This document shows positions 6,529 to 62,306 of a DNA stretch of 64,000 nt, piece by piece. Origin of the DNA: a virus; the IMG/VR virus record IMGVR_UViG_3300017917_001123, positions 267,571-331,570 of that record; one strand, 5' to 3'. Made by a program: the position numbers and the translations under genes. A model generated the notes under the pieces. It worked only from the letters and a program-made list of their open reading frames with translations. It was not told the origin of the DNA and made no database searches. Position 1 is the stretch's first letter, and every line of letters starts with the position of its first letter.

Positions 6529-6609
6529 TTGTAAATGTAAGGATCCATTTTACGCAGTTTCTTTATTTGCTGTCTGCGTTTATACCATCTATACGGTGTT
6601 AGCAACCAA

Positions 6610-11233: not shown

Positions 11234-12069
11234 ACTAATGACTCTAATGTGTTGATGAAGTTATCTGTAATAAGATCCTTCTTTGTGTAATGTAGGATAT
11301 CGGACTGAGCGTATGGCCCAATCTTTATATTTAGGTCCCCGTCATAGTAAAACGGAATACGTTCTGTCCATTCGTAGTCTGTTGCGCCAAGCCCTTGACT
11401 TCTGCCCTTCATGTGTGTAAAGCGAGGAAATGGTACAGCAGGATTACTCATATCTTCTACCATATCTAACATCTTAGCAGTTAGCGCACAGGCTTCGTCT
11501 GTTGGGATGCTGTCAAACTTGTAATCCTCTAATTGTTCTTTCCACAGCTCTGGATAATCAGTTAGTGCTTCTAGTACACGAAAAAACTTTGTAGTTTCTC
11601 TACTTTGTTTGAAGTATAACCAGCCACTGTAGAAGTCTGGCAATTTGTTTTGATCAACGACATATCTGTAATAACGATCTGTCATTGTTTCTCCTCTGAA
11701 CGTCATAGGGCGGGTAGCAACATACAAGTCGTGTTTTCTAACAAACGGAAGCCAATGACTAACATCGCTTAGGAACAGCAGGTCGCTATCTAAGAATATA
11801 GTTTCTTTATAAGGCGTGTGCTCATAGGCTCTGCTTCTGGCATTCATTCCTTTAGGGCCATCGTAATTAATGACGGTATCAAATACCCATTTTAGTTTTA
11901 AGTTTTGAACAACCTTTGGAGTAGTTGTTGCGATGCTTACAGAATTAAATCCCTGCGGTTGTGTTAGTTTAATTGTTAGCGCAGTAGCATAGGCTAATCT
12001 AAGATAGTCTGTAGTCTGCGTGTTGTTGGCTATCATAAAGTAGCCTAGGTTAAACTCTTTTGAAATCAT
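11206..12069 (-). CDS. hypothetical protein with DxD motif (glycosyltransferase-like)
   Basis: 'IFLDSDLLFLSD' DxD-type motif. 287 aa. Confidence 0.4.
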   Translation of the reverse strand: MISKEFNLGYFMIANNTQTTDYLRLAYATALTIKLTQPQGFNSVSIATTTPKVVQNLKLKWVFDTVINYDGPKGMNARSRAYEHTPYKETIFLDSDLLFLSDVSHWLPFVRKHDLYVATRPMTFRGETMTDRYYRYVVDQNKLPDFYSGWLYFKQSRETTKFFRVLEALTDYPELWKEQLEDYKFDSIPTDEACALTAKMLDMVEDMSNPAVPFPRFTHMKGRSQGLGATDYEWTERIPFYYDGDLNIKIGPYAQSDILHYTKKDLITDNFINTLESLVWNKYKDVM

Positions 12070-12866
12070 TTGACTAACTCCATGAGCTTTGGTAACTTAT
12101 CTAGCAAGTCGAATTTATTCATGTAGTGTATGTCTTGCCCTTGCGTTTTAACAAGCGTTTCTCCACACATTAGGACTGTCAGTGTTTGATCTTTAACCTG
12201 TAGAATCTCATCTTTGTCTGTAAAGATTATAGGACTTGGTAAGGCAGTATAAAACTTATCAAGACCAAACCCGCCCATAGTATGACAAGCAACACTAAAT
12301 GCGTAATCGTTTCTAAATCTTCTTGTATCGAACTTATAGAGTGCGCCGTAGTAACTCCAGTTTTCTCTAACATGGTCAACAAGTTCAAACAGGGCTTTAA
12401 CTTCAGGTGTCTTGTTAAAAATAATGTTTGTAGCCCAGAGCATAGGAATACTAGCAGGGTCTAGCATTAGTGCGCCTAGTGAATTGCCCAGCATGTCGTT
12501 CATACCTTCGCAAATCATAAAGTCTCTATCTGCTTCTAAGTAAGGCTTCAAGCAACTGCTTTGAACTAAGAAATCGCTGTCAATCACTAGTGTTCTGTCA
12601 TAAGGGCTTAGTTCGTATGCCGAACTTCTGTTGGTGTTCTTAAACGAAATGGTCTTACCGGCAAGTGTTCTAGTATTGTCTGTTTCCACAGTAGTAACAA
12701 TCAGTCCATCAAATACGCCCACATCTGTTGCGTCCAAGGTCTTGCTGTCTGTAACAAGCGTGACAGGAATGTTAAGATGTTTCTTAACAAGGCCTGCGGC
12801 TAAAACAGCTTGAGGGCCGTATGCTATGTCGCCATCAAAGGCGAAAATGACGCACCCTGTTGTCAT
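12066..12866 (-). CDS. hypothetical protein with DxD motif (glycosyltransferase-like)
   Basis: 'LVIDSDFLVQS' DxD-type motif. Start overlaps the previous gene's stop (ATGA). Confidence 0.4.
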   Translation of the reverse strand: MTTGCVIFAFDGDIAYGPQAVLAAGLVKKHLNIPVTLVTDSKTLDATDVGVFDGLIVTTVETDNTRTLAGKTISFKNTNRSSAYELSPYDRTLVIDSDFLVQSSCLKPYLEADRDFMICEGMNDMLGNSLGALMLDPASIPMLWATNIIFNKTPEVKALFELVDHVRENWSYYGALYKFDTRRFRNDYAFSVACHTMGGFGLDKFYTALPSPIIFTDKDEILQVKDQTLTVLMCGETLVKTQGQDIHYMNKFDLLDKLPKLMELVK

Positions 12867-13204
12867 AGGTCCACCAGTTTGGCTGCGGTTCGTTTTTGTT
12901 TGATTTGACTGTAGTCTGTCATGTATCTGTTTGTTACTTCAAAATACACACCTACAATCTTGTTGAAGAAATCCTGTAGGTTTTCAATTTCTACAGGATA
13001 TTCGTTGTCGTCTAAGATAACGGCAGATTCATAATCTTTAATTGAACTGATAAAACCAATCAGTTCTCTGCCTACAGTGAAAATGCCTCCGTTGTGTGCG
13101 ATAACAAGTTCAGCAAGTGCTTTGTCTTTTAAGCGTTGTCTTTCTATTCCTAGTGTCTGTCTATAGTTTGCGTGTTCGATTGCTTGTTTAAGCCGATCAT
13201 CCAT
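12863..13204 (-). CDS. hypothetical protein
   Basis: 113-aa ORF, translationally coupled (ATGA overlap). Confidence 0.4.
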   Translation of the reverse strand: MDDRLKQAIEHANYRQTLGIERQRLKDKALAELVIAHNGGIFTVGRELIGFISSIKDYESAVILDDNEYPVEIENLQDFFNKIVGVYFEVTNRYMTDYSQIKQKRTAAKLVDL

Positions 13205-13213
13205 GTGTGCCTC

Positions 13214-14095
13214 TTAGTAGTTGTTTGGTTTTGTCTGTGAATAAGGATAGTAGATTGCTACGTTATGATATATGTTACCATTAACATAGTCCGGACCGCC
13301 TGCGATGCCCGGGTGATCATCGACATAATACACGGTCATAGTAATAGCAGTTCTTTGTTTAACGTCTGTGTTATTATGCCACAGATATATTTGTACATAG
13401 TTTGCTGTATAAGGACTTTCTGGACTATAAATTCTAAATGCTTCGTTAGCGCCTGTGTTTGATGTTCCATAAACACCACCTGATCCCCAGCTGTTGTAGA
13501 ATGTTCCGCCCCAGGCTGCGCCCGATTGGAACATCCCCGTACGAGTCAGAACAATAGTTCCCATGTTTGCTAGCAAGTTTGACCATGTTGCGTTTTGGCT
13601 AGTGCCGTCGCCCCCTGATCGACTTCCTGTAAATTGTAGTCTGCCACCGCCATTCCAGAAACCCCTGTATGCGGCATTGTCTGCCCAAGTAACTGACACA
13701 GATCCTAATGGAGTTAATACTCCGTTCCATGCTCCGCCATACCCATATGACGGGCCAGCAACATAAGCTAGCTGACCTGTACTGATAGCACCCCTATTAG
13801 AGTAAGCAGTATCAACACGAGCAGAGATTGTTGACAAATCAGTTGAAGTAATAATCGCCGTATCGGCTCTTGTTGTAAGGTCTGAGTTAGCACCTGTTTG
13901 TAATAGGTATGCTTTGTTAACGTCGGCTCTTAGATTGTTCCATTGAACACCGGTAATTTTTTCATTATCGGCTACCGTTGCCGCAGAGTAAGTTGTGTTA
14001 TAGCCAAGATCGTTAGTAGTACCATCTGGTGTGCTTAACACACTACGCATTTTAAGAATAACTGGGTTCCAGTCTTCGTTTTGAATGATTGCCAT
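13214..14095 (-). CDS. hypothetical beta-rich protein, paralog A
   Basis: 293 aa, Gly/Ser/Thr/Asn/Tyr/Trp-rich. Shares 'DLGYN', 'RxDxAY(S/A)xR' and 'SGGxGxSQxxSW(T/S)N' blocks with the adjacent gene. Confidence 0.5.
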   Translation of the reverse strand: MAIIQNEDWNPVILKMRSVLSTPDGTTNDLGYNTTYSAATVADNEKITGVQWNNLRADVNKAYLLQTGANSDLTTRADTAIITSTDLSTISARVDTAYSNRGAISTGQLAYVAGPSYGYGGAWNGVLTPLGSVSVTWADNAAYRGFWNGGGRLQFTGSRSGGDGTSQNATWSNLLANMGTIVLTRTGMFQSGAAWGGTFYNSWGSGGVYGTSNTGANEAFRIYSPESPYTANYVQIYLWHNNTDVKQRTAITMTVYYVDDHPGIAGGPDYVNGNIYHNVAIYYPYSQTKPNNY

Positions 14096-14099
14096 AATT

Positions 14100-14999
14100 T
14101 TATCCTAATGTAGATCCTAGCTGTGTAGCTGTTGGTGTTTTATTATACGAGTAATATGTGTTAACAGAAAAACCTAATGTGCCGTCGACTAGGTCTGGAC
14201 CTTGCCCTGTTGCTACGTGTGGGTCTAGTAATACATATTCGATCTCAAAACCTGTTGCAGTAAGAACATTATTACCGCCATATGGTCTAATATAAATGGT
14301 AAAGCTATTAGAAGTGTAGTTTGCGTCACTGGCAAGTATTCTAAAAGCAATACCAGCGTTTACACCAGTTTGTCCATTCTGTAACAAATTATATAGCCCG
14401 CCGTTTGGAAAACTACCGTTACGTGATTGATTTTGTTGAATGGCAGAGTTACCACTGAATACTAAAATTCCAATAGCCTGGAAGATATTAGTCCAGGAAG
14501 AAGTTTGACTTGAACCACTACCTCCTGTCATTGATCCGCCAATGGTAATAAATCCGCCTAAGTTAGCCCACCCACGAAACTCTGCGTTTGATCCCCAATC
14601 GAATCTTACTTTATATTTGTGCTCGGTCTTCCATGTGGAACCGTTAACATAATTATCTGATGTTGTAATTTGTAATTTTCCAACACCGGCAGTAGTTCTG
14701 CTAGCATAGGCAATGTCAACTTTTGCTGATACTTCTGTTAAGTCGTCTGTTTCGATTAACTGACTTCTGTTGTAGATAGCTAGTCCAGTAGACAATCCTG
14801 TTTGATGTTCAATTGCTAGGTTAACGTCTTGAATTACTAGGTTAAGGTCTTGTCCAACAACTTTGGCGCCTTGGACGGCAGGCAAACTAGCAACAGCTAG
14901 GTTGTATCCGAGGTCGAACACCGTGCCGCTAGGTGATCCGATAATTGATGCTATTTTGTTCTGTACTAAATTGAACGCTTCGTCCGTTACTTTTGCCAT
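14100..14999 (-). CDS. hypothetical beta-rich protein, paralog B
   Basis: 299 aa. Collinear similarity to 13214..14095 ('FDLGYN', 'AKVDIAYASR', 'GGSGSSQTSSWTN'). Confidence 0.5.
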   Translation of the reverse strand: MAKVTDEAFNLVQNKIASIIGSPSGTVFDLGYNLAVASLPAVQGAKVVGQDLNLVIQDVNLAIEHQTGLSTGLAIYNRSQLIETDDLTEVSAKVDIAYASRTTAGVGKLQITTSDNYVNGSTWKTEHKYKVRFDWGSNAEFRGWANLGGFITIGGSMTGGSGSSQTSSWTNIFQAIGILVFSGNSAIQQNQSRNGSFPNGGLYNLLQNGQTGVNAGIAFRILASDANYTSNSFTIYIRPYGGNNVLTATGFEIEYVLLDPHVATGQGPDLVDGTLGFSVNTYYSYNKTPTATQLGSTLG

Positions 15000-15010
15000 C
15001 AGTTGCTCCG

Positions 15011-15331
15011 TTATACCCTAAACGACTCGCCGCATCCGCAACGATCTCTTTCATTAGGGTTCTTAAATTCAAATCCTTCGTTTAGCCCGTTCCTTACATA
15101 ATCAACAGTTAGGCCATCTACATAAACATGGCTTTTGGGATCAACAAAAATGCTGAATCCGGTTTTTTCAAACACTAAATCGGAACTGTCGGGCTCGTCT
15201 ACATATTCTAACACATAAGCTAGCCCTGAACAGCCAGTAGTTTTAACGCCTATCCGAATGCCCATTCCTTTCCCTCTCTTTTGTAGGTTTAACAAGAATT
15301 TATTGTAGGCTTCAGTTGTTAAGTTGACCAT
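15011..15331 (-). CDS. Fe-S cluster assembly protein IscA/HesB/ErpA family
   Basis: 106 aa. 'GCSGLAY' and C-terminal 'CGCGESF' are the three conserved Cys of A-type carriers. Confidence 0.8.
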
Positions 15332-15353
15332 AAAGTGTTAAAATAAATATTAT
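15324..15353 (+). promoter_or_regulatory. sigma70-type promoter TTGACC-18-TATTAT (rightward, iscU)
   Basis: -35 at 15324-15329, -10 at 15348-15353. Overlaps a leftward promoter in the same AT-rich stretch. Confidence 0.35.
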
Positions 15354-15377
15354 ACGCATATTTAGCGAGTAAAGCAA
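15349..15377 (-). promoter_or_regulatory. sigma70-type promoter TTGCTT-17-TATAAT (leftward, minus-strand gene array)
   Basis: On the minus strand, TTGCTT (complement of 15372-15377), a 17-nt spacer, and TATAAT (complement of 15349-15354). Confidence 0.35.
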
Positions 15378-15397
15378 CGGCTTAAAAGGAGTCTGAT

Positions 15398-15796
15398 ATG
15401 GCATACAGCGAAAAGGTAATTGATCATTATGAAAACCCCAGAAATGTGGGTAGTTTTGATAAGTCTGATACTTCCGTTGGTACTGGTATGGTTGGTGCAC
15501 CTGCTTGCGGCGATGTTATGAAATTACAAATAAAGGTGGACGATGCTACAGGTATTATTACAGATGCGAAATTTAAAACGTATGGCTGTGGATCGGCTAT
15601 CGCAAGTTCGAGCCTTGTCACAGAGTGGGTCAAAGGAAAAACTCTTGACGAAGCCGGAGCAATCAAAAACAGCCAAATTGCCGAAGAATTAGCCCTTCCC
15701 CCGGTAAAGATTCACTGTTCAATTCTAGCAGAAGATGCTATCAAAGCCGCAGTAGCGGACTACAAGGAAAAACATGGAAGCAATAACAGTAACTGA
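15398..15796 (+). CDS. iscU: Fe-S cluster scaffold protein IscU/NifU-like
   Basis: '[13 protein letters not shown]', '[11 protein letters not shown]' and '[12 protein letters not shown]' are the three conserved Cys motifs of IscU. Confidence 0.85.
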
Positions 15797-16100
15797 TGCG
15801 GCTTATGACAAGATAATTGACGTACTTGCCGAAGAAAACAATCCTAATATTGCTCTTAGGGTATTTGTTCAGGGCGGCGGCTGTTCGGGCTTCCAATATG
15901 GTTTTACCCTAGACGAAGAACAAAACGAAGACGACTTTGTTATTGAAGGCAAAGTTAAGATTTTAGTTGACTCGATGAGCTACCAGTACCTTGTAGGTGC
16001 TACTATAGATTACAAAGATGAAATCTACGGTAGCCAATTTACTATTAAAAATCCCAACGCCCAATCAACTTGTGGCTGTGGCTCTAGTTTTTCCGTTTAA
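15774..16100 (+). CDS. Fe-S cluster assembly protein IscA/HesB family (second copy)
   Basis: '[11 protein letters not shown]' and C-terminal 'CGCGSSFSV'. Confidence 0.8.
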
Positions 16101-16108
16101 GGATATTA

Positions 16109-17359
16109 ATGAAGATAGCTATACTAGGTGTAGGTTCAGCAGGTTCTATTTCAATTGCCCAACTTTGTGCTCATGTTCCTAAAGGTTGTAAAGTAGTCAG
16201 CATACACGATCCATCAATTCCTATGTTTCAAATAGGCGAAAGTACAAATGCTAATATGGTATCTGTTCTTGAGCAAGCATGTCACTTTAGTTTCACTGAA
16301 GATCTTCCAGCAATGGAAAGTACAATCAAATTCGGTAATAAGTTTATGAAGTGGCGTGACCGAGATTGGTTCAACCCTTTGCTCGATGGTGGCATCGGAA
16401 TACATTTCAACAACTTTAAATTAAAAGAATTTGTAATCAGTCGAGTTAAAAAACATTGGCCTGATAAATTTGAAATGATAGAGGGAAACGTTTCTAATTT
16501 AGTGAACCATGGAACGTATGCCGACGTTGTAGTTGACGGACAGACCCATAGGTTTGATTGGGTAATTGATACACGAGGAACACCAACCAACTGGAGCGAA
16601 TACGAAATTGTAGACGGCATTTCGATTAATAGCGGAATTATTCATACAGTAAACGAGCCAGGAAACTTTCAATATACAGAACATCTAGCAACAGCAAATG
16701 GCTGGATGTTCGGAGTACCACTAACATCTCGTCATACTCACGGTTATCTCTTTAATGATAAAATTACTTCTAAAGAAGAAGCCATTGAAGATATGAAAAA
16801 ATATTTTGGCACAGACGATATTGGCCGTAAGAATGCTCCGGTACACTATCAATTTAAGAGTTACTTTGCTAAAAAAGTTCTAGAAGGTAGAGTCTTAAAG
16901 AACGGCAACAGGGCTAACTTCTTTGAACCAATTAGCGCCAGTGGAATATTCTACTATATCTATACAAACTATCTTCTAATTGATTTGTTTAAGAAAAGAC
17001 ACAACGAAGATGAACTAAATCAAAAATTTAGAGATTTCGGAAATCAGTTGGCAGATCTTATTTGTTTCTTTTATCACGGCGGAAGTACTTACGATACACC
17101 ATTTTGGAAATATGCCAAAGAAAACGCAAGACAGCGACTTTTTAGAAGTCCGTTTTTTAGAAAAGCGTTAATTGACTGTTTTGTCAAGGGCGAAGCAGGG
17201 TTACCACATTATGCTGACCCGTGGATCTTTAGTGGATATCATCTTCATTTAATCGATAAAAAGTTTGGATATAATTACTTCACAGATCCTGTAAAAAATC
17301 GGCAAGCAGTAGCAGAAATTGATGCCAACTTAAAGTCTCAAGGAAAAATAATATTATGA
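16109..17359 (+). CDS. flavin-dependent (tryptophan-type) halogenase-like protein
   Basis: N-terminal dinucleotide-binding 'IAILGVGSAGSI'. 'QIGESTNA' resembles the halogenase 'IGVGEAT' motif. 'ANGWMFGVPL' resembles the 'GWxWxIPL' motif. Confidence 0.5.
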   Translation: MKIAILGVGSAGSISIAQLCAHVPKGCKVVSIHDPSIPMFQIGESTNANMVSVLEQACHFSFTEDLPAMESTIKFGNKFMKWRDRDWFNPLLDGGIGIHFNNFKLKEFVISRVKKHWPDKFEMIEGNVSNLVNHGTYADVVVDGQTHRFDWVIDTRGTPTNWSEYEIVDGISINSGIIHTVNEPGNFQYTEHLATANGWMFGVPLTSRHTHGYLFNDKITSKEEAIEDMKKYFGTDDIGRKNAPVHYQFKSYFAKKVLEGRVLKNGNRANFFEPISASGIFYYIYTNYLLIDLFKKRHNEDELNQKFRDFGNQLADLICFFYHGGSTYDTPFWKYAKENARQRLFRSPFFRKALIDCFVKGEAGLPHYADPWIFSGYHLHLIDKKFGYNYFTDPVKNRQAVAEIDANLKSQGKIIL

Positions 17360-18075
17360 TTGAATATAGATCGCCGACAACTGTAAAAGATTCTCTACCC
17401 CAAACAGAACAACGTACCGAATGGATGGATGGTTGGTTTAAAATTCGTAAGCTCGACTTGAACATGGATGCTCTAAGACACGAATGTCTAGGAGTTCAAA
17501 AAATGGTCAAGGAACGTTACGGAGACCAAGACGGAATGAATTACTATGAGAATAAGACAACAAACTTATTTGGCAAGTACAACATTTTTATGTTTAGTTC
17601 TTTTTCTCTACATACATTGTACTCTGAGATAGTTAAGACTTGGAACATGGTCAAACCCGATGATCAAAAATATTATCTACAAAGTTGGTTAAATGTCTAT
17701 GACCAGAGCAAAAGTATTGGCTGGCACTATCATTGGACAGAAAAGTATCTTGCTTGGCATGGATTTTTCTGTGTTGATGTCGACGTGAGTAAAACAACTT
17801 ACGCATTACAGCCACCACACTTTCAGCGTAGCAAGTCAATTCCTTACGGAACTTACAACGGTCGAGAAATCCTTGAATACAACGATGAGTACGAACTAAT
17901 CGATGTAGTAGGACAAGACGGTCTCTTAATTATGAGCCCTAGCGCAGGAGATAGCCACAGAAATATTCCGTGGAAGATTGCGGAACGTCCTCGAATTACT
18001 ATTGCGTTTGATATTGTGCCAGGTCAACATATTTTTAATGAAGACTGGGAGAATCACTGGATACCTCTAGTATGA
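17356..18075 (+). CDS. hypothetical protein
   Basis: 239-aa ORF, ATGA overlap with the upstream gene. Confidence 0.45.
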   Translation: MIEYRSPTTVKDSLPQTEQRTEWMDGWFKIRKLDLNMDALRHECLGVQKMVKERYGDQDGMNYYENKTTNLFGKYNIFMFSSFSLHTLYSEIVKTWNMVKPDDQKYYLQSWLNVYDQSKSIGWHYHWTEKYLAWHGFFCVDVDVSKTTYALQPPHFQRSKSIPYGTYNGREILEYNDEYELIDVVGQDGLLIMSPSAGDSHRNIPWKIAERPRITIAFDIVPGQHIFNEDWENHWIPLV

Positions 18076-18326
18076 GCTTATATAAACAACTACACATTGA
18101 CACAATTAAGTTAGGAGCCCGTGCCCAAACTGAACACGATTTTGGAGAGGAGGGAGCCATTCTTATTCCAAATGGAAAATCCAAAATATTTGTACATTGG
18201 ATGACCGACAAAGGCAATATTCGTTCAACTTGGACTATGACTTATGCGTCCAAAATAAAAGGAAAAGTTCGTTTAATTAACGGTTTGGACAATGAACTTT
18301 CAATTCAAGTCTTGACAGACTGGTAA
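18072..18326 (+). CDS. hypothetical protein
   Basis: 84-aa ORF. Its 3' end carries the ligase promoter. Confidence 0.35.
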   Translation: MSLYKQLHIDTIKLGARAQTEHDFGEEGAILIPNGKSKIFVHWMTDKGNIRSTWTMTYASKIKGKVRLINGLDNELSIQVLTDW

Positions 18327-18340
18327 ATCTTTGCTATAAT
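18312..18340 (+). promoter_or_regulatory. consensus sigma70-type early promoter TTGACA-17-TATAAT
   Basis: Perfect hexamers: -35 at 18312-18317, -10 at 18335-18340, 30 nt upstream of the ligase ATG. Confidence 0.55.
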
Positions 18341-18369
18341 ATACATATAGACACTGAAAAAGGATCCAA

Positions 18370-19659
18370 ATGTATCAGATTATTCAAGAGCTTGAAGCAG
18401 ACAATAGTCGCCTTGCTAAAGAAGCAATCATTGAACGTGAAAAAGATAATGCTGAATTGTTTGAGGGCTTTGAACTTGCCCTAAGTCCATACATTACTTT
18501 TGGTGTTAAGAAAGTCCCTACACACGGTGGTCCAGACGGGCAAGGACTTCCTTGGGACGCATTTAAAGAACTTTGTCATCTTCTTAGCACTCGTCAGCTA
18601 ACTGGCGACGATGCTCGTTCTGCTATTGAACTAGCCCTTGGCGCAAGCACTAAAGCTCAATGGAATGATTGGTACCGTCGAATTCTTATTAAAGACCTCC
18701 GTTGCGGCGTTAGCGAAAAAACTGTAAATAAAGTTAAGAAAAACGCTGTACCAGTGTTTGAATGTATGCTGGCACACGACGGAGCCAATCATGAGAAGAA
18801 AATTAACGGTCTACGACTCCTCGAACCAAAGTTGGACGGTGTACGATGCCTCACAATCGTCGACTATGAATCTCGAACCGTGGTTCAGTACACACGAAAT
18901 GGCAAAGTATTGGAAAACTTTAGCCACATTACAGATAGCCTTCTTGCTAACATCGATGATATTGGTCGATCATATGTTCTTGACGGAGAAGTCGTTAGTC
19001 ATAGCTTCCAAGACTTGATGAAGCAGGTACATCGCAAAGACGATGTAAAAGCACAAGACGCTCGGCTGATGCTGTTTGACATTTTGCCTCTTAGCGAGTT
19101 TAAGAAAGGCAAGAGCATCATGGGCCAAAAGCGCCGTAGCAATCTACTCAAAACCCTCAAACCCATCTTTGACAAGTGCGGTAGCATCGATGTTATTCCG
19201 CAAATTGAAGTCGACCTCGACAGCTATGTGGGAGAACTTCAATTCAAAGAATTTAACAAACAAGCAATCGAAGACGGCTTCGAAGGCATTATGATCAAGG
19301 TGCCAGATGCGGCATATGAATGTAAGCGAAGCACTAGCTGGCTCAAAATTAAACCCTTTATCGAAGTGTCGCTAACTGTAGTTGGCATTGAAGAGGGTAC
19401 TGGTAAAAACGAAGGCCGACTTGGCGCATTAATCTGTGAGGGTGTAGATGACGGAAAAACTATCTCTGTCAATGTTGGATCGGGCTTTACTGACGACCAA
19501 CGTTCTGAATTCTGGTCCGATCAAGGATCTTTGGTTGGTCAAGTCGTGGAGATCCGCGCTGATGCGGCGACTCGGAGCCAAGATAGCGAGGATGTGTGGT
19601 CGCTACGTTTTCCTCGTTTTCTCCGATTCCGAGGTTTCAAAGCAGGTGAAAAAATTTAA
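18370..19659 (+). CDS. ATP-dependent DNA ligase
   Basis: Adenylation motif I 'EPKLDGVRC' (KxDG). Length and 'EGIMIK' motif fit the T4/T7-like ligase family. Confidence 0.85.
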   Translation: MYQIIQELEADNSRLAKEAIIEREKDNAELFEGFELALSPYITFGVKKVPTHGGPDGQGLPWDAFKELCHLLSTRQLTGDDARSAIELALGASTKAQWNDWYRRILIKDLRCGVSEKTVNKVKKNAVPVFECMLAHDGANHEKKINGLRLLEPKLDGVRCLTIVDYESRTVVQYTRNGKVLENFSHITDSLLANIDDIGRSYVLDGEVVSHSFQDLMKQVHRKDDVKAQDARLMLFDILPLSEFKKGKSIMGQKRRSNLLKTLKPIFDKCGSIDVIPQIEVDLDSYVGELQFKEFNKQAIEDGFEGIMIKVPDAAYECKRSTSWLKIKPFIEVSLTVVGIEEGTGKNEGRLGALICEGVDDGKTISVNVGSGFTDDQRSEFWSDQGSLVGQVVEIRADAATRSQDSEDVWSLRFPRFLRFRGFKAGEKI

Positions 19660-19660
19660 G

Positions 19661-19921
19661 ATGGAAAAATCAGCAGTTAAAGACTTACTATTTGGGGGCA
19701 TCAATGAGTTGATGCGTGACCGAAGATACTACTATCACAGTTCGGTAGGATCGGGTTACAGTTATTGGACTGATGAAGGCAAGGAAGCCCTTATTGAGTA
19801 TATGAATGTAATGGGCTGGAAACTAAAGGAAGCCGAAGAGGCCGACTTGAATAAGCGTTCGAAGGATATGGTAATGAACGCATTAAAGGGAAAGAATCTT
19901 GACGGAAGTAAGAGTTCTTGA
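19661..19921 (+). CDS. hypothetical protein
   Basis: The ORF track gives 19448..19921, but that overlaps the ligase 3' end. The internal ATG at 19661, right after the ligase stop, is taken as the start (MEKSAVKDLL...). Confidence 0.4.
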   Translation: MEKSAVKDLLFGGINELMRDRRYYYHSSVGSGYSYWTDEGKEALIEYMNVMGWKLKEAEEADLNKRSKDMVMNALKGKNLDGSKSS

Positions 19922-20507
19922 TAATGTAGTACCTGTAGAAATACAGGATAAGGTGCTGGACATGGTTCAGCACCATCGCTTCAATTGGCATTTCGCACCT
20001 AGTAATGTCTATGAAGACGATGAAAATCGTGGCCAGACTTTTCTGGACAATCAAACTGTAGATTCTTATCAGTTTTATCATTTGTTTCTACAGACTCAAA
20101 TGGGTTACAACGAGCCTTTCTATCAAAATTTTAGGCCGTTAATTCAAGAGATACAAAAGTCGTTTGATCTACAAAGCCGAAATGTCTTGCGTGTTAAAGC
20201 AAATATGCTGACTAACAACAGACGTTTCTATCCACTGGCGTATAATCCTGCCCATGTGGATAATGAAGAAGAACATTGGGTAGTTGTTTACTATGTTAAC
20301 GATTCGGATGGGGATACAGTAATTTTCAATGAAACTTACGGTTCTTCGTTTGATAAACTTACCGAACAGGCAAGAGTTTCGCCTAAGAAAGGCAGAGCTG
20401 TATGCTTTCCGGGTAAGTATTTTCACGCTAGTTCAAATCCTATCAATTCGGAGTGGAGATGCGTGTTTAACATTAACCTGTCGATGACAGGGCCCATTGT
20501 TCTATAA
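19899..20507 (+). CDS. 2OG-Fe(II) oxygenase superfamily protein
   Basis: HxD 'HVDNEEE', distal His 'KYFHASS' and basic 'RCVFNIN' fit the 2-His-1-carboxylate facial triad plus the 2OG-binding residue. Confidence 0.55.
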   Translation: MTEVRVLDNVVPVEIQDKVLDMVQHHRFNWHFAPSNVYEDDENRGQTFLDNQTVDSYQFYHLFLQTQMGYNEPFYQNFRPLIQEIQKSFDLQSRNVLRVKANMLTNNRRFYPLAYNPAHVDNEEEHWVVVYYVNDSDGDTVIFNETYGSSFDKLTEQARVSPKKGRAVCFPGKYFHASSNPINSEWRCVFNINLSMTGPIVL

Positions 20508-20523
20508 GGAGATGTAACTCAAA

Positions 20524-20739
20524 GTGGCAAAAGACGATTGTATCGTAATGTTCGGTACTGTTGAAGAAGTACTACCCAACGCAATGTTTCGCGTTAAGCT
20601 CGAAAGCGGACAATATGTTCTAGGACATATCTCTGGTAAGATGCGTCAAAACAGAATTCAAATTCTACTAGGTGATAATGTCAAAATTGAAATGAGTCCA
20701 TATGATTTGTCTAAGGGACGAATAGTTTATAGACAATGA
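20524..20739 (+). CDS. infA: translation initiation factor IF-1
   Basis: 71 aa, GTG start. '[60 protein letters not shown]' is near-identical in pattern to bacterial IF-1 ('...HISGKMRKNYIRILTGDKV...[12 protein letters not shown]'). Confidence 0.85.
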
Positions 20740-21536
20740 TCCCTATCATTACAGGTTCTGACGGTTATATAGGAACCAACCTATCCCAGCTATTCAATAA
20801 GCACAATAGATCTTTTGTTGGGCTTGATCGCAAATCAGGTCCAGATCTCCTGAGTGCCGAGGGCAAGGATCTTTTTGAGGAATGTGCTAGTACAGCGGAT
20901 GTAGTTATACATCTTGCGGCTCGTCCTCGAATTCCTCCTAGCTGGGTAGATACTACTGCTTATATTCGTGATAACATTGAGCTAACAGAATATGTTGCTC
21001 GAATATGCGCCGAACAAGGCTGTCATTTAATATTTGCTAGTTCTAGCTCTGTTTACGGGAACGGAACAGGTCCTCTGAATCCCTATGCTTGGACTAAAAA
21101 AGCCGGAGAGGACATTATTCGTATCTACGGCGAAAAAGGACTAAGTTACACAATTTGTCGCTTGTTTACTACCTTTGGCAATAACGGACCCTTGGTTTTA
21201 GATAAGTGGCTCAAGCAAAGCCTAGCCGGAGAACCTATAACACTCTACGGCGATGGCACACAAAGTAGAGATTTTATTCATGTAGAGGATGTAGCAGATG
21301 CTCTTTACTCTGCTTATCTTGCCAAATTAGACAAAGAAACGCTAGATGTAGGCACAGGCAAAGCCCACAAACTACAGGATATTGCGGACTGGTACGGGAA
21401 CGAAATTATTCGTGGTCCTGCTCAAGAGGGCTATGCTCACAGCACTCAAGCGAAAGCCCAGCGAACAATGGAATTGCTCAACTGGGCTCCTAAACGTCCA
21501 GTAATTAGTTGGATCCGTTCTGGCCTAGATATGTAG
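20736..21536 (+). CDS. NAD-dependent epimerase/dehydratase (SDR family)
   Basis: N-terminal 'ITGSDGYIG' GxxGxxG and 'YAWTKK' YxxxK catalytic motif. Ends in TAG. Confidence 0.65.
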
Positions 21537-22038
21537 CCCAACTTGGGTGCGCCATGTGAAATGGCAACTTCTTACGTTGTTCAATAAGTTCCCAATAAGT
21601 AGGCTTATAAGGCTTCTTCTTAGGCACGATTTTCTTGTTGTTACCCTTGTTTGCGTTACATGGAGAACAGGCAGTCGTTGCGTTTTCAAAGGTAGACTTA
21701 CCACCGTGCGATGTTGGAACCACGTGGTCTAGGGTAGCAGTCTTTTTATTGACTTCGGTACCGCAGTACTGGCATTTAAATCCGTCGCGAAGAAATACGT
21801 TCTGCTTAGAGTAGCGAACGCCTGTTTTCGGCTTCATGTATTCTTTTACCATAATAACAGCCGGTACAGGAGTAGACCAGCGAGCTGATCTAACGACCCA
21901 GTCGTCGTGCCATTCCAATACAATAGCTTTGTCCAAAACCATGTATCGAATAGCTTCCTGCCATGTAATTACACTCAACGGAAGCATTGAAACTGGGCTT
22001 CCGTCTGTGTTTAAAACTAAAACGTCTGACATAATCAC
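21505..22038 (-). CDS. HNH homing endonuclease
   Basis: 'CQYCGTE...LDHVVPTSHGGKSTFENATTACSPCNANKG' is a canonical HNH motif. Free-standing, opposite strand, overlaps the 3' end of the epimerase gene. Confidence 0.8.
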   Translation of the reverse strand: MIMSDVLVLNTDGSPVSMLPLSVITWQEAIRYMVLDKAIVLEWHDDWVVRSARWSTPVPAVIMVKEYMKPKTGVRYSKQNVFLRDGFKCQYCGTEVNKKTATLDHVVPTSHGGKSTFENATTACSPCNANKGNNKKIVPKKKPYKPTYWELIEQRKKLPFHMAHPSWATYLGQNGSN

Positions 22039-22120
22039 ATATTTAGTGGGGGTTAAAACAGCTTTTAGTATAACAGATCACAATGGTTTAATCAAGAGCT
22101 CTAGGCAATAAATACGCAGT

Positions 22121-22387
22121 ATGAGCCGCCAAAAATCACTATTACAAGAATATACCGCCGATCCAAAAGCTATAAAAGAAGCACGTTCTGAGCCCTTTCC
22201 AGAGCCAGTAATCGACCGCAGTTTGAGCTTTTTACGTGCTATTGTGCTAGATTTACCCATCCAAACGGGTAGTGTAGTAGAAAGTACACAAGAATATACC
22301 GAAATGGAACGAGCAATTATGGAAGGTGGACACAGTTTAGAAGAAGAACAAATGGCAATGCTTAAAAAATTAGCAGGATTAAAATAA
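22121..22387 (+). CDS. hypothetical protein
   Basis: 88-aa ORF immediately upstream of the fibre genes. Confidence 0.4.
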   Translation: MSRQKSLLQEYTADPKAIKEARSEPFPEPVIDRSLSFLRAIVLDLPIQTGSVVESTQEYTEMERAIMEGGHSLEEEQMAMLKKLAGLK

Positions 22388-24145
22388 ATGACAACAGCGA
22401 CAATTCTTTTTATTAACACAGGAACATCTGCTAATAAGGGCGACGGTGATAGTCTACGCCTAGCATTTCACAAAGTAAACAAAAACTTTGAGCTTTTAGG
22501 TGTTACTACAGGTTTCGACACAAATGCTGTCAAAGATACAGTTTCGGAAATTTTAACTCAAGGAACACACTACGGTATTTCATATCTGTACAACACAGCA
22601 ACAAACGTAATTATTTCTAGTTTAACTACAGCAACAACTGATCGTTTAGGCGGTGTTAAACCGGGATCGGGAATTTCTATTACCGCAGACGGTACAATTT
22701 CTGCGGCTACTGCTTATGTGCTACCTATTGCTACAGCAAACCAATTAGGCGGTGTGCGTGTAGGTAATGGCCTAGCAATTGATCAATTTGGTGTGCTTTC
22801 AAATGACGGCGTTACAGCATTCCGTCCTAATGTAAGTCAACCATTTAGAACAGGTAATATTACATTACAATCAACAGACATTAGTTTTGCCCTAGGATTT
22901 ACTCCTCTTAACGCAAACCTAAAAGGCGCCCTAAACGGCGTAGCAGAATTAGACGGTACAGGTAAGGTTCCGTTAAGTCAAATGAACGAGGCAGTTCTTG
23001 GAGGATTGAACTTCCAAGGAACATGGAACGCAAGTTCAAACAATCCACAGATACAAAGCGGAGTTGGTACTAAAGGTTACTACTATAAAGTCAGTGTAGC
23101 AGGTACTACTAGCATTGACGGGATTGGTATTTGGAACGTTGGTGACTTAATTCTTTATAATGGTACTGCTTGGCTAAAGATTGACGGTACTACAACAGAA
23201 GTTTTATCTGTTGCAGGCCGTACAGGCGACGTTGTACTTTCTTTTACAGACATCAACGGAAATATCGATCGTTCTGCGTTCAGCGCAACAAGTACAGCAA
23301 CTAACCTAGCACTGGGCACAGTTAAGTTAGGTACAGGTCTAGTAGGTGCGGTAGACGGAACAGTTAGTGTATCTGAAGCACTACTTGGAAGTACATTACC
23401 TGCCACAACATCTACACTTGGAGTTATTAAAGTTGGAGATGGTTTATTAATTACTCCAGACGGTACATTAAGTGCTGTTGTTGGTAGTTCTGGAAACATT
23501 ACTTTCCAAGGCAACGAAATTAGAACTATTGAATTAGATACTGATCTAGTTCTTCGTCCGACCAGTAACGTAGTAAGATTCTATACAACATTGTTACATA
23601 TGGGCGGTAATAACAACTTGTTGTTAAGAACTAACCAATTTTTAAATGCAGGTCTAGCAACAGATTCAACAAACTTCAGCTTACGTATTGTAGGTGATAG
23701 TAACGTAGGTACTACATTATTTGATGCTGGTATCTACAATAGCCCAATTGCAACCACTGGTTGGTCAAGTAAGATGCTGTTAACAAAGAATGGTAACTTA
23801 ACAGTTGCTGGTACGTTGCGTGTTAACGGTGTGGGCGGAATTACATTTGCGGACGGATCAACTCAAACAACCGCAGCCGCATTAACTACAGCAACAACTA
23901 CAGCAGTCGGTGGTATTGTTGTAGGCAATGGTTTGACAATAGATGGTGCTGGTGTTCTTAGCGTTGTGTTAGGAACAACAGGCGGACAGATTACGGACGT
24001 AAGCGCAACAAGAGGTACTATTACTTCTGGAACAGAACCAGGTGATCCAGGTATGGTATCTTATGACGGTTCTTATCTATATCTATGTATTGCTACAAAT
24101 ACATGGGCAAGGATCGCAATCGTTGACGTTCCAGGACAATGGTAA
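22388..24145 (+). CDS. tail fibre protein (repeat-containing)
   Basis: 585 aa, Thr/Gly/Ser-rich. Recurrent 'TTATxxxLGGV(K/R)xGxGLxIDxxG(V/T)LS' repeats typical of long tail fibres. Confidence 0.6.
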   Translation: MTTATILFINTGTSANKGDGDSLRLAFHKVNKNFELLGVTTGFDTNAVKDTVSEILTQGTHYGISYLYNTATNVIISSLTTATTDRLGGVKPGSGISITADGTISAATAYVLPIATANQLGGVRVGNGLAIDQFGVLSNDGVTAFRPNVSQPFRTGNITLQSTDISFALGFTPLNANLKGALNGVAELDGTGKVPLSQMNEAVLGGLNFQGTWNASSNNPQIQSGVGTKGYYYKVSVAGTTSIDGIGIWNVGDLILYNGTAWLKIDGTTTEVLSVAGRTGDVVLSFTDINGNIDRSAFSATSTATNLALGTVKLGTGLVGAVDGTVSVSEALLGSTLPATTSTLGVIKVGDGLLITPDGTLSAVVGSSGNITFQGNEIRTIELDTDLVLRPTSNVVRFYTTLLHMGGNNNLLLRTNQFLNAGLATDSTNFSLRIVGDSNVGTTLFDAGIYNSPIATTGWSSKMLLTKNGNLTVAGTLRVNGVGGITFADGSTQTTAAALTTATTTAVGGIVVGNGLTIDGAGVLSVVLGTTGGQITDVSATRGTITSGTEPGDPGMVSYDGSYLYLCIATNTWARIAIVDVPGQW

Positions 24146-24165
24146 AAACTTTTTAGGATAGATAT

Positions 24166-27100
24166 ATGGGTATTAAGATTTCACAACTGCCAACACTGAC
24201 TCTTGGAAACATCAGAGATGCTAACCAATTGCCAGTAGTTGATACTACAACACTAGGTACTAAAAAAGTTACCATCGGTGACATTAAAACCTATGCGACA
24301 CAGGGATTAAGTGCGCTGGCGTTTTCTGGAAGCTACGCAGATCTAGTTAACGTTCCAACAACGTTTCCAATTCCTACAGCTAGCCCAACAACGTTGGGTG
24401 GTATACGTGTTGGTGGATTTTTAAATATTGACCAAAACGGTGTTCTAAGCGCAGACCCTGGCTTCTATAACATCAACGTAGGTAACGTACAGATTAACTC
24501 TGCCAATGGCGCATTAAACGTTATTGCTGGTAATAACGTAACTATTGACGCAGACGATCTAACTAACACAATTATTATCAACAGCTCCGGTGGCAGCGGC
24601 GGTGGCTCTGGCAACGTAGGAAAAGCAAACACAGGAACATTAGCAGTTTACTTTAATACTAATACCGTAACAGGTACAAACATTACAATCGAAGGCGGAA
24701 GTATTACTACTGACGGAGTAGTAACAGCCGCAGGCTTTGTTGGCGAAAGACTTACCGCAACTAGCATTGTTACTACAGTAGGCGATTTAATACTAGCACC
24801 AAGCGCAAACGTTTCTGTAACAGGAAAACGTATCGTTAACTTATCAACACCAGTTGGTTCAAACGATGCGGCAACCAAAGCCTACGTAGATGCTCAGACA
24901 AGTCGTGCGTTTGGTAAAGTTTCTGTTCCAGGACAGGGACTAGTATCAGCAACTTCTGGTACAGATACATTAAACTTTGCCGCAGGTAATAACGTTACGC
25001 TTTCGACTAACCCTGCTACAAAGACAGTTACTATCGCAGTTAACAATACACTATCTTTTGCTCTATTACCTGCTACAACAAGTAGTATCGGTGGTGTTAT
25101 CATTGGCTCAGGATTGTCAATTGACCAAAACGGTGTAGTAACTGCTTCGGCTCAAGCTCTTACAACCGCAACAACAAGTACGCTCGGCGGAATCATTATC
25201 GGTGATGGACTATCAATTGACGGCAATGGAAGATTAAGTTCAGCCGCTCAGTTTGTTCTTAATACTGCGTCTTCAACAGTTGTTGGTGGTGTTAAGATTG
25301 GTTTTGGTTTACAAATTGATAGTCAAGGTACTATTAGCGTACCAACACAAGTTTTAACAACAGCAACTAAATTCTTATTAGGTGGTGTTAAGATTGGTAA
25401 CTCGATTGCTGCCGCGGTAGACGGAACAATTGATGTTAACGTAGGTCAACTAACTCCAGCAACTACATCTTCCTTAGGAGTTGTAAAACCGGGTTACGGT
25501 CTAAGTGTAAGACCAGATGGATCACTAGACTTAGGAGTCGACGGTAACTTTACTATCACAGGTAACCTAAGCGTTGCTGGTGTAATTAGTGCCACAAACA
25601 TTTTTACAACAGGCACAGCAGTTACTATTATTAGTAGTGCTAATGATCTTCAATTACGTGCGGCAGGCCAAGTAATTACAAATACAACATTGTATGTAAA
25701 CACTAGTACACCTGCTACTTCTACATCAACTGGTGCTTTACAAGTGTGGGGCGGAATTGGCGTAGGTAAGAATATTATTACAGGTGAACCAAGTATTATT
25801 GATGGCGTTTATATCAGCGGTTCTCGTACAGCCGGAGGTGTTTACAACATTGCTTTAGGTTCAGGTGCGTTGGGATCTAACGCAGGCGCATCTTATCTAA
25901 CAGCAGTCGGTTATAATGCTCTTCAATTAGCAAACGTAAGTGAAAACTCTGCGTTCGGGTATAATGCTGGTAATTCTTTAACTAACGGCAGCAAGAATAC
26001 ATTCATCGGACAAGCCGCCGGTTCTGGACTGGCAAGCGGAACATTTAACTCTGTATTAGGCCATCAGTCTTATACTGGTCAAGGTGCTAGTTCGTACAAT
26101 ACTATTTTAGGTAGCAATATCAATGCTAACGCTAACCAAGTACAAAGTTACAATACATTTATTGGTTATAATATTGCTAACATTACAAACCGTCCTGGTT
26201 CGTATAACATCGCAATCGGTGGTAACAACCTACAGGCAACAACTGGCACAAGTAACATTGTAATTGGATACGGTGCTGGAAGCGGATTAACAACAGCCAG
26301 CAACCAAGTTATCATTGGTGGATACAACGGAACGGCTATTGCTACACAAACAGGCTACATTAGTCTTGCTGACGGAATAGGTAATCTTCGTGCTCAGTGG
26401 GATAACAAAGGACAGGTTACATTCTTTAATACAGCAACATTCTTTGCCACACAGAATGCTACTAACTCTACAAACAGCGGCGCATTAATTGTTGCTGGTG
26501 GTGCTGGTATTGGACAGGATTTATATGTTGGCGGAACAATTTACTCACAAGGTTCTCCAGTAATTACACAGGCGTATCTTGGTACTCCAATTAGTACAAT
26601 CACAGCAGGTACTGATACTAAAGTAGTTACAGCAGGTAGCGCAGTTACAATTTGGAATACATCGACTCTACAATCTATTACGTCAAGAGGAAACACTACT
26701 TCTAACCCAATTAGAATTACAAGTCAAGCATCAACAACTGGTACTAGTACAGGTGCCTTAATCCTTGACGGCGGACTAGGACTAGCAGGAAGTATCCAAG
26801 CAGGTGGTACTATTAACGCAGGTGCTGACAGTACCGCAAGTTCGATTGCTGAAACTGTTGGTTTATTTGATCGTGGCCGTCGTGTAATGACACAGGCAAT
26901 TTTAACTGGCGACCTAGGAATCGAAGTAACATCAAGTAGCAATACTGCTACTGTAATGGCCTATAACATCAAGAACACTGGTGTAAGATTTATTACTCCG
27001 GGCGATGGCCTTGCTATGTTAGTAAACGGAACAAGTGCGGTTGCTAATGGTACTGGCTCTGTTACACTTTCTGTTACTGCGGGCCTTGAACAAGTTTCTG

Positions 27101-52392: not shown

Positions 52393-52469
52393 ATATAAAC
52401 TTTGAAAGGACTACATCATGGCATATAGAGCTAAAAATGGTAGCGTAAAGGCAGCGGCACGTAGAGCAT

Positions 52470-52557
52470 TACGTCGTCGACAGAAATAATTTTATTGCTG
52501 TATGAAGCAAACCCAAAAGGGTTCTGGACGCGGGTTCGACTCCCGCCAGGTCCACCA
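52470..52557 (+). ncRNA. ssrA: tmRNA acceptor piece (3' tRNA-like half, ends CCA) of a permuted two-piece ssrA; 5' boundary approximate
   Basis: T-arm 'GCGGG-TTCGACT-CCCGC' (52530-52546), 3' acceptor strand 'CAGGTCC' + A + CCA (52547-52557). No matching 5' acceptor strand upstream, so this is not a tRNA. Confidence 0.65.
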
Positions 52558-52645
52558 AAAGAGGATTGTATGAACGAAGAAGTAACTAAATGGATGCTGG
52601 GCGTGGGCCTAGTTCTTTTAATGTTCTTTTTAGTCCTTTTTTGAT

Positions 52646-52839
52646 GGGCCTGTACTGGATTTCGACAGGGTCAAGAGTAGGCGAGTGGACAGCACGGTAG
52701 GCGATGACCGTAAATCAAGCAAAACAAAATAGACGCAAACGATGAAGTTTACGCATTGGCGGCCTAATAACGGCTTCCTAGGGTAGGAAATACCTCGTAA
52801 CAGAAAATACCAAAAGGCTCTTCGGAGCCTTTTTCTTTG
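52646..52839 (+). ncRNA. ssrA: tmRNA coding piece (5' acceptor strand, tag reading frame ANDEVYALAA, terminator)
   Basis: 5' 'GGGCCTGTACTGGATTTCGACAGGG' matches the tmRNA 5' consensus (E. coli GGGGCUGAUUCUGGAUUCGACGGG). GGGCCUG pairs with CAGGUCC of the upstream piece. 'UAG-AC-GCA AAC GAU GAA GUU UAC GCA UUG GCG GCC UAA UAA' at 52730-52770 parallels the E. coli resume region and tag. Confidence 0.75.
52813..52839 (+). terminator. rho-independent terminator of the tmRNA transcript
   Basis: AGGCTC-ttcg-GAGCCT followed by TTTTTCTTT. Confidence 0.65.
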
Positions 52840-52853
52840 AGTCAAAAAATGTC

Positions 52854-52882
52854 TTGACTCTTCAGTGAAAACACTATATAAT
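52854..52882 (+). promoter_or_regulatory. sigma70-type promoter TTGACT-17-TATAAT with overlapping palindrome
   Basis: -35 at 52854-52859, -10 at 52877-52882. A 7-bp inverted repeat gagtcaa-N8-ttgactc (52839-52860) overlaps the -35. Confidence 0.5.
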
Positions 52883-62230: not shown

Positions 62231-62306
62231 GCGTCTGTAGCTAAGTGGCATAGCAGGAGCCTCTAAAACTCTGAATCGCGGGTTCGATTCCCGCCAGACG
62301 CACCAA
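62231..62306 (+). tRNA. tRNA with anticodon loop CU-CUA-AA (putative amber suppressor tRNA-Sup(CUA))
   Basis: Full cloverleaf by hand: acceptor gcgtctg/cagacgc, D-arm gcta-agtggca-tagc, anticodon stem ggagc/actct (one C-A mismatch at 31-39), loop ctctaaa, 5-nt variable loop, T-arm gcggg-ttcgatt-cccgc, discriminator A, encoded CCA. Confidence 0.7.

Follow-up and report, generated by a model that had tools for sequence, protein, structure and literature searches.

Introduction

Why does a bacteriophage carry a gene for translation initiation factor IF-1? The question is raised by an infA-like gene at positions 20524..20739 (+ strand) of a 64,000-nucleotide stretch of IMG/VR virus record IMGVR_UViG_3300017917_001123 (positions 267,571 to 331,570 of that record). 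This whole stretch is referred to here as the window; coordinates are those of the window. The gene starts with GTG, ends with TGA and encodes a protein of 71 amino acids. We report that this protein is a true, phage-encoded IF-1, and that it belongs to a lineage of phages in which the gene is a long-term resident under strong purifying selection, not a recent capture from a host. The explanation that we favour, with somewhat better than even confidence, is a functional phage IF-1, supplied early, that works on the 30S subunits of the host.

Phage IF-1 is already known as a kind. Genes for IF1 and IF3 were catalogued in huge phages by Al-Shayeb et al. (2020; PMC7162821), and later surveys also list phage IF1, for example in soil huge phages (PMC11748809). 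In the literature searched we found no functional study of a phage IF-1, and no description of the ligase/IF-1/HNH operon, the conserved promoter or the residue signature described below. What is new here is the lineage-wide evidence from the operon, its promoter, selection and amino acid substitutions.

Results

The gene at 20524..20739 encodes IF-1

A first-pass annotation of the window, made from the sequence alone, had proposed an IF-1 open reading frame (ORF) at this locus, with a GTG start and an AAGGAG Shine-Dalgarno sequence. The ORF, the start codon and the Shine-Dalgarno sequence were all confirmed, and the peptide quoted in that annotation was found exactly. The NCBIfam equivalog profile for infA, TIGR00008, matched the protein over profile positions 1-69 of 69 with a score of 110.3 bits (E=3.2e-32), where the cutoff is 61.15 bits. 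The Pfam family PF01176 (cutoff 30.2 bits) scored 89.8 bits (E=8.9e-26), and no match to the Pfam cold-shock (CSD) or S1 families was obtained at E<=1. The closest PDB sequence was E. coli IF1 (9fco_I), which aligned without gaps over residues 1-70 (E=1.1e-25).

We also modelled the protein with AlphaFold2, using 36 homologs as input. The model has a mean predicted local distance difference test score of 87.3. It consists of strands at residues 7-17, 21-26, 31-36, 52-58 and 61-70, with a short helix at 38-42, and is thus a five-stranded OB fold. When the model was compared with the PDB using Foldseek, the first 14 matches were all bacterial IF-1. The 30S-bound E. coli IF1 (9fco_I) superimposed with a template modelling (TM) score of 0.94 and a root mean square deviation of 0.9 Å. 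After IF-1, the next matches were eIF1A/aIF1A, followed by RsgA N-domains; no cold-shock protein was found among the listed Foldseek matches at E<=0.001. Hence, the best matches in both sequence and fold are IF-1, and not cold-shock or other S1/OB-fold proteins; best matches of the latter kind were what the first-pass annotation had named as fatal to its assignment.

The family phrog_30201 matches window positions 20524-20736 (E=1.2e-29) and carries the PHROGs label 'unknown function'. Its members are evidently IF-1, and this annotation gap hides IF-1 in phage annotations.

IF-1 is a long-resident gene of a phage lineage

We next asked whether the gene belongs to the phage. In IMG/VR, at least 199 viral contigs encode a relative of the window IF-1, and synteny was scored on the best 80. 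The cellular scan covered one genome per species in 185,579 species, and all cellular figures given here and below are among the matches listed. A ligase homolog was found 1.3-2.6 kb upstream of IF-1, on the same strand, in 80/80 IMG/VR loci versus 0/80 cellular loci. Similarly, an HNH gene (59-76% identity) lies on the reverse strand just downstream of IF-1 in 78/80 IMG/VR loci and in 0/80 cellular loci. In the two IMG/VR loci where the HNH gene was not seen (L141 and L156), the fetched locus ends within ~150 bp of IF-1. Since it occupies the same position in 78 of the 80 related contigs, the HNH gene behaves as a core gene and not as a mobile homing endonuclease. A large protein database contains, in addition, a dense set of 71-72-amino acid IF-1 proteins that are 75-95% identical to that of the window; every one of these for which context was examined lies in the same phage module, on contigs from ENA, JGI and NCBI.

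Selection on the gene was measured across the viral copies. IF-1 is intact in 92/92 of them. The median pairwise ratio of non-synonymous to synonymous substitution rates (dN/dS) is 0.107, calculated from the 268 pairs with usable dS; synonymous sites are saturated in 2215 of 2485 pairs. Distances between IF-1 proteins correlate with those between the ligases (rho 0.34) and between the HNH proteins (rho 0.43; Mantel p=0.001 in both cases), which is comparable to the correlation between the ligase and HNH distances (rho 0.50). The median divergence of IF-1 and ligase is the same (0.26). The GC content of the IF-1 gene is within the range of the phage.

The first-pass annotation had suggested phylogeny as a way to tell capture from a host clade from descent within a phage clade. 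In the alignment, the nearest neighbour is viral for 92/92 viral sequences and cellular for 82/82 cellular sequences. The best cellular IF-1 among the matches listed is 69% identical to the window protein, and the top matches come from unrelated phyla. Because the phage tmRNA is of the betaproteobacterial two-piece type (see below), betaproteobacterial IF-1 proteins are a relevant comparison; those of Burkholderia and Neisseria are 66% and 58% identical, respectively, and are no closer than those of E. coli (66%) and Mycobacterium (65%). In a neighbour-joining tree, the clade together with Sinorhizobium phage Phosso forms one bipartition. Bootstrap support is weak, with 137/300 replicates recovering the clade with or without Phosso (74 + 63), because the alignment has only 72 columns. 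We therefore argue for a single origin from synteny and not from the tree. The IF-1 proteins of Lak phages and Bacteroides DAC phages are closer to cellular sequences than to the window clade, which suggests that acquisition of IF-1 by phages happened more than once.

These data bear on the possibility that the gene is a passenger, recently captured from a host and without function in the phage, or that it is cellular DNA joined to the contig by misassembly. IF-1 is, after all, a cellular gene, and at least one public 'phage' IF-1 record, that of Acinetobacter phage MD-2021a, is bacterial. However, the gene occupies one position in 80/80 independent IMG/VR contigs, and again in contigs from ENA, JGI and NCBI, which reach 357,895 bp. 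The strong purifying selection, the saturated synonymous sites and the co-divergence with flanking genes also speak against this possibility. So do the exclusively viral nearest neighbours, the scattered and at most 69% identical cellular matches listed, the lack of a closer match among betaproteobacterial IF-1 proteins and the phage-typical GC content. We consider this possibility effectively refuted and give it almost no credence.

The first-pass annotation had also called IF-1 rare in phage genomes. This holds for deposited genomes, where at most 36 of 50,697 phage records match the window IF-1, and the closest of these is no more than 64% identical. However, IF-1 has been catalogued in huge phages since 2020, and in the lineage itself every relative recovered by our IF-1-based scans has the gene. 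Most of the matching deposited records belong to Lak phages, Bacteroides DAC phages, Phosso or two uncultured huge phages; several of the remainder are short and unannotated. The record of Acinetobacter phage MD-2021a (L176; CAKLQH020000005.1) is a bacterial chromosome fragment carrying leuB, leuC, leuD, truA, ansA and infA. Several other short, unannotated 'phage' IF-1 records (Listeria, Staphylococcus, Enterococcus) may likewise be host DNA, which would inflate the counts.

Most 30S contact residues are kept and a set of clade-specific substitutions is found

We then compared the residues by which IF-1 contacts the ribosome. The residues with which T. thermophilus IF1 touches the 30S subunit were taken from bioRxiv 10.1101/2023.10.27.564398; starting at residue 4, the numbering there equals that of the window protein. 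Of the two IF1 sequences used as alignment references, that of E. coli agrees with PDB 9fco_I over residues 1-70, and that of T. thermophilus agrees with the published numbering of the contact residues. For the lineage as a whole, 66 unique clade sequences were compared with 72 unique cellular sequences.

As the first-pass annotation required of a true IF-1, the contacts to the 530 loop, uS12 and A1492 are conserved. In cellular IF-1, the 530 loop is contacted by Lys2/3, His/Tyr35, Gly38, Lys39 and Arg66, uS12 by Tyr60 and Asp61, and A1492 and helix 44 (h44) by Pro18, Ala20, Arg23, Arg41 and Arg/Lys64; all are identical or conservatively replaced in the window protein. Across the clade, K3, P18, A20, R23, H35, G38, K/R39, R41, Y60, D61, K/R64 and R66 are invariant or conservatively replaced. 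The listed contacts to the 530 loop, uS12, A1492 and G1410 are identical or conservatively replaced in 80-100% of the 66 clade sequences, and the C-terminal R70 is also retained.

The pattern of conservation is informative about a function away from the ribosome. The phage could keep the protein for RNA melting or transcription antitermination, and not for initiation. RNA chaperone and antitermination activities have been reported for E. coli IF1, as has complementation of a csp double knockout of B. subtilis; this chaperone activity is one that cellular IF1 shares with Csp proteins (reviewed in PMC3017892). Like cold-shock proteins and S1-like OB RNA chaperones, the window IF-1 is a small, five-stranded OB fold. 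Conversely, the positions without variation in the clade are those at which the 530 loop, uS12 and h44 are touched, as selection for ribosome binding predicts. Unlike cold-shock proteins, the window protein has an IF-1 equivalog score and no cold-shock-domain match in Pfam, and Csp proteins are absent from its top structural matches. Hence, we think a role solely off the ribosome improbable.

Other positions distinguish the clade from cellular IF-1. At position 16, Ala (59% of cellular sequences) is replaced by Val (95% of the clade). Position 30 is His in 96% of cellular sequences and Ser, Pro, His, Ala or Gln in the clade (Gln in the window protein). Position 34 changes from Ala (96%) to Gly (97%), position 42 from Met, Gln or Lys to Gln (98%), and position 44 from Tyr or Phe (93%) to Lys or Arg (100%). 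At position 46, cellular sequences have Arg (57%), Lys (41%) or His (3%), and clade sequences have Gln (86%; Gln46 in the window protein), Thr (12%) or Lys (2%). Position 49 is Pro in 84% of cellular sequences and variable in the clade. Arg46 of T. thermophilus IF1 contacts the flipped-out A1493 (bioRxiv 10.1101/2023.10.27.564398). The window protein lacks the basic residue at position 46 that is expected of a bacterial IF-1. The net charge of segment 38-50 is nonetheless unchanged (3.0 versus 2.9), and the basic residue may have been relocated from position 46 to position 44.

We scored four of these changes as signature states: position 30 not His, 34 Gly, 44 not aromatic and 46 not basic. 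All four states were present in 55 of the 66 clade sequences, three in 10 and two in 1. Among the 72 cellular sequences, 66 had none and the maximum was two. Sinorhizobium phage Phosso (L172) and the uncultured huge phage LR756508 (L177), whose IF-1 proteins are 64% and 44% identical to that of the window, both have all four states. LR756511 has none, and the Lak and DAC phages have one each. As judged from these alignments, the signature shared with the unrelated Phosso and LR756508 points either to phage-to-phage spread of one lineage or to convergence.

The signature raises the possibility that the phage protein re-programs initiation. In this scheme, a phage-type IF-1 would displace the host factor from the 30S subunit and would change initiation by way of an altered surface (positions 30, 34, 42, 44, 46 and 49). 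It could affect the checking of start codons or of fidelity together with IF3, the IF2-dependent joining of subunits or the moment at which IF-1 is released, to the advantage of phage mRNAs or to the detriment of host initiation. The nearly clade-defining signature, and its recurrence in two unrelated huge phages, are in keeping with this. So is the shift of the basic residue from position 46 to 44 with the charge of the segment kept, which resembles remodelling and not decay. IF1 is also reported to serve as an anchor for both IF2 and IF3 and to stabilise the C-terminal domain of IF3 in its discriminatory state. On the other hand, we found no residue-level map of the IF1-IF2 or IF1-IF3 interface in the structural papers searched. 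In addition, the cellular sample is small at 72 sequences, and single signature states do occur in cellular lineages, as with Gly34 in the IF1 of Burkholderia thailandensis and Asn44 in L043, L049 and L071. We regard re-programming as the main rival to the favoured explanation, possible but rather unlikely. Similarly tentative is the broader proposal that the T4-like clade, Phosso and LR756508 share a distinct 'phage-type' IF-1, of one lineage or convergent, that serves as an early take-over factor.

IF-1 is part of a conserved, ligase-headed operon

To place IF-1 in its transcription unit we examined the DNA around the gene. An extended sigma-70 promoter at 18312..18340 (+) matches the consensus at 12/12 positions (TTGACA, a 17 nt spacer and TG-TATAAT) and ends 29 nt before the start of the ligase gene. 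From its sequence, this is likely the promoter of the unit containing IF-1. The same arrangement is found in relatives: in 61 of 69 unique ligase-upstream regions, a sigma-70 sequence with 11-12/12 matches and a spacer of 17 nt lies 26-45 nt ahead of the ligase start. In a random control, such a match was found in 38 of 2000 windows. When positions 17000-23000 were scanned for terminators, the sole terminator-like site on the + strand was a weak 5-bp stem within the ligase gene (19514-19529).

The unit opens with a gene for an ATP-dependent DNA ligase (18370..19659, +; PF01068, PF14743; phrog_114, 346 bits). It is followed by a 2-oxoglutarate (2OG)-Fe(II)-oxygenase-like ORF of 202 amino acids (19899..20507, +), whose match to PF13640 (25 bits) is below the cutoff of 27; it also matches phrog_274 and phrog_81. 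The TAA stop codon of this ORF (20505-20507) overlaps the IF-1 Shine-Dalgarno sequence. IF-1 is followed by a gene for an NAD-dependent nucleotide-sugar epimerase (20736..21536, +; PF01370, 135 bits; phrog_540). The epimerase ATG overlaps the IF-1 TGA as ATGA (20736-20739), which suggests translational coupling between the two. The HNH endonuclease gene (21505..22038, - strand; PF14279, PF01844; phrog_16726) converges on the unit and marks its downstream boundary. A further ORF of 157 amino acids (19448-19921, +) matched no family. It is read in a frame different from that of the ligase gene, with which it shares ~210 nt at the 3' end of the latter; it is also called as a gene on Logan contig L001, and its true start is probably further downstream.

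The first-pass annotation had placed IF-1 among auxiliary genes. This is correct for the window, where the gene is flanked by the weakly matching oxygenase-like ORF and the epimerase, but these flanks occur in a subclade only and the conserved context is different. The oxygenase-like ORF is confined to L001, L002, L004-L006, L088, L095, L096, L099, L100 and L171, and the epimerase flank is specific to the subclade of the window. In most relatives, an unannotated ORF of 80 amino acids precedes IF-1. Taken across the lineage, the conserved context is an operon running from ligase through a small ORF to IF-1 and facing the HNH gene. Early promoters of phage T4 are used by the host polymerase. By analogy, the conserved promoter suggests that the operon would be transcribed early, by unmodified host RNA polymerase.

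The signals for translation of IF-1 were also compared. The AAGGAG Shine-Dalgarno sequence (20506..20511, +) lies 12 nt before the GTG, and 64 of 66 unique upstream regions from relatives have an AAAGGAG-type site ~12 nt before the IF-1 start. The gene starts with GTG in 87/92 viral copies versus ATG in 63/80 cellular copies. Because synonymous sites are saturated, the GTG start looks maintained and not inherited by inertia. In most relatives, the ORF before IF-1 has its stop codon directly against the GTG, which suggests that translation of IF-1 is coupled to that of this ORF. In the window, an ATG-TAA start-stop mini-ORF (20512..20517, +) lies between the Shine-Dalgarno sequence and the GTG. 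It was seen only in the window's subclade, in the window itself and in L002, L005 and L171, and as ATG-TGA in L088. The mini-ORF may be a stop-codon vestige of the small ORF that precedes IF-1 elsewhere, or a re-initiation device.

A tmRNA and a CUA tRNA lie at a distance from IF-1

The first-pass annotation had grouped IF-1 with a transfer-messenger RNA (tmRNA) and a suppressor tRNA as a translation-manipulation toolkit. Both RNA genes are real. A two-piece, circularly permuted tmRNA with the tag ANDEVYALAA was found by ARAGORN at 52447..52858 (+). It scores 152.6 bits with RF01850, the model of betaproteobacterial tmRNA, and 132.8 bits with RF04321, that of permuted tmRNA; this type is a hint that the host may be a betaproteobacterium. 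At 62231..62305 (+) lies a tRNA of the amber-suppressor type (anticodon CUA) whose CCA end is encoded; it was found by ARAGORN, scores 65.1 bits with RF00005 and has a cloverleaf fold. The idea of a toolkit fared less well. The tmRNA is 32 kb and the tRNA 42 kb from IF-1; the parts co-occur in one genome, and nothing links them functionally.

At least 13 IMG/VR tmRNA loci share the flanks seen in the window, with nrdB at 70-86% and a peroxiredoxin at 74-93% identity. Thus, because these flanking genes are common to the loci, the tmRNA is conserved in this phage group. No contig with both IF-1 and tmRNA was found in the two listed IMG/VR sets, and none is expected, since the genes are 32 kb apart and the contigs are fragmentary.

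We considered whether TAG is recoded in the window and rejected this, since genetic code 11 gave the best coding fraction (0.946). TAG is a rare stop codon, used by 5 of 86 ORFs. TAG also terminates the epimerase gene downstream of IF-1, which would gain 16 codons by read-through.

A search of 20 further ORFs found no SmpB or other translation protein. One candidate for SmpB, a highly conserved ORF of 179 amino acids near the tmRNA, was rejected because it is a peroxiredoxin of the AhpC/TSA type. In this region, at 52960-53424 and 55566-56827 (+), a porin-like outer-membrane beta-barrel adjoins the tmRNA, and the peroxiredoxin and a carboxymuconolactone-decarboxylase/AhpD-like protein lie further on. 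The sequences suggest that the peroxiredoxin and the AhpD-like protein could form an antioxidant pair.

The window derives from a T4-like phage

The window has a GC content of 41%, is densely coded under the standard code and comes from a T4-like phage. It encodes rIIA (56971-59148; phrog_612, 446 bits), NrdA, NrdB and ThyX in addition to the ATP-dependent ligase. Structural genes encode tail fibre, tail spike and minor tail proteins, and there is also a gene for an S8 peptidase. The auxiliary genes include those for a carbamoyltransferase, a tryptophan halogenase, NifU/IscA and radical-SAM enzymes. Positions 5053-17359 form a large auxiliary or biosynthetic block, with a Nol-like carbamoyltransferase (5053-6528), a radical-SAM-like protein (8460-9821), NifU (15398-15796), an IscA/HesB-type Fe-S assembly protein (15774-16100) and a tryptophan-halogenase-like protein (16109-17359). 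A second 2OG-oxygenase-like ORF is at 17356-18075. Relatives also have SPASM/radical-SAM genes in the region corresponding to 5053-17359 (L168).

Among the 50,697 deposited phage records there is no close relative, and megablast with positions 15000-27000 found no match. Using tblastn against deposited phages, only distant relatives were found, with the ligase at most 35% and rIIA at most 45% identical. The contigs of syntenic relatives reach 357,895 bp (L005, from NCBI; CACUVV010000001.1), 240,024 bp (L171) and 207,813 bp (L130), compared with 64 kb for the window.

Discussion

The window protein is closely similar to bacterial IF-1 (1AH9 and 9FCO; T. thermophilus 1HR0). It has 71 amino acids, aligns end to end without gaps, shares ~61-66% identity with E. 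coli IF1 and is predicted to adopt the same OB fold, with the 530 loop, uS12 and A1492 contacts and Arg70 kept. It differs from bacterial IF-1 in being phage-borne, in its location in a ligase-headed operon and not at a cellular locus, in its conserved GTG start and in the clade replacements of His30, Ala34, Tyr/Phe44, Arg/Lys46 and Pro49. As with the IF1 proteins of huge phages, it is borne by a probably large phage that has other translation-related genes (the tmRNA and tRNA), and Phosso and LR756508 share the four-position signature of its clade. In contrast, the IF-1 proteins of Lak and Bacteroides DAC phages appear to be separate captures. Phage-encoded bS21, bL12, S1 and IF3 have been proposed to redirect host translation. 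The window IF-1 resembles these in being a small, virus-supplied factor that would act at the initiation step. It is unlike them in being a different protein, with the 30S A site as its predicted binding site.

The favoured explanation, a functional IF-1 supplied early, can be set out as a series of steps. Unmodified host RNA polymerase would transcribe the operon early, from the sigma-70 promoter before the ligase gene. IF-1 would be translated from its conserved GTG, coupled to the preceding small ORF in most relatives. The protein would then occupy the A site of the host 30S subunit in the manner of cellular IF-1, between h44, the 530 loop and uS12. There, it would raise or maintain IF-1 activity, making 30S initiation complexes form faster and cooperating with IF2 and IF3. 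Such activity during the shutdown of host gene expression would thereby allow efficient initiation on phage mRNAs, which is the expected benefit to the phage. Judging by the residues concerned, the changes at positions 30, 34, 44 and 46 probably tune seating on h44 and A1493, or release, without abolishing the basic role.

Three considerations count against this explanation. First, the Arg46-A1493 contact is lost and the near-invariant His30 and Ala34 are changed, so the protein may behave unlike host IF-1. Second, the 12-nt Shine-Dalgarno spacing and the non-ATG start suggest modest expression, which fits a boosted supply less well. Third, that host IF-1 would be limiting is a supposition.

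If the clade does have a phage-type IF-1, then that protein would keep the 30S-binding core, with basic residue 46, aromatic residue 44 and His30 lost and Gly34 gained, and would alter the kinetics or fidelity of initiation to the benefit of phage mRNAs, through cooperation with IF3 and IF2 or through its release when subunits join; it would not be a spare part. More generally, phage translation factors have so far been entries in metagenomic surveys. Here, there is evolutionary evidence that one of them, IF-1, matters to the phage. This evidence comprises a fixed position in an operon with a sigma-70 promoter in dozens of divergent relatives, strong and long purifying selection and reproducible substitutions. 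These substitutions are at positions that hardly vary in the sampled cellular IF-1 proteins, and one of them affects a contact with the decoding centre. The idea that phages hijack translation thus becomes a directly testable question, through comparison of a 71-residue protein with the IF-1 of the host.

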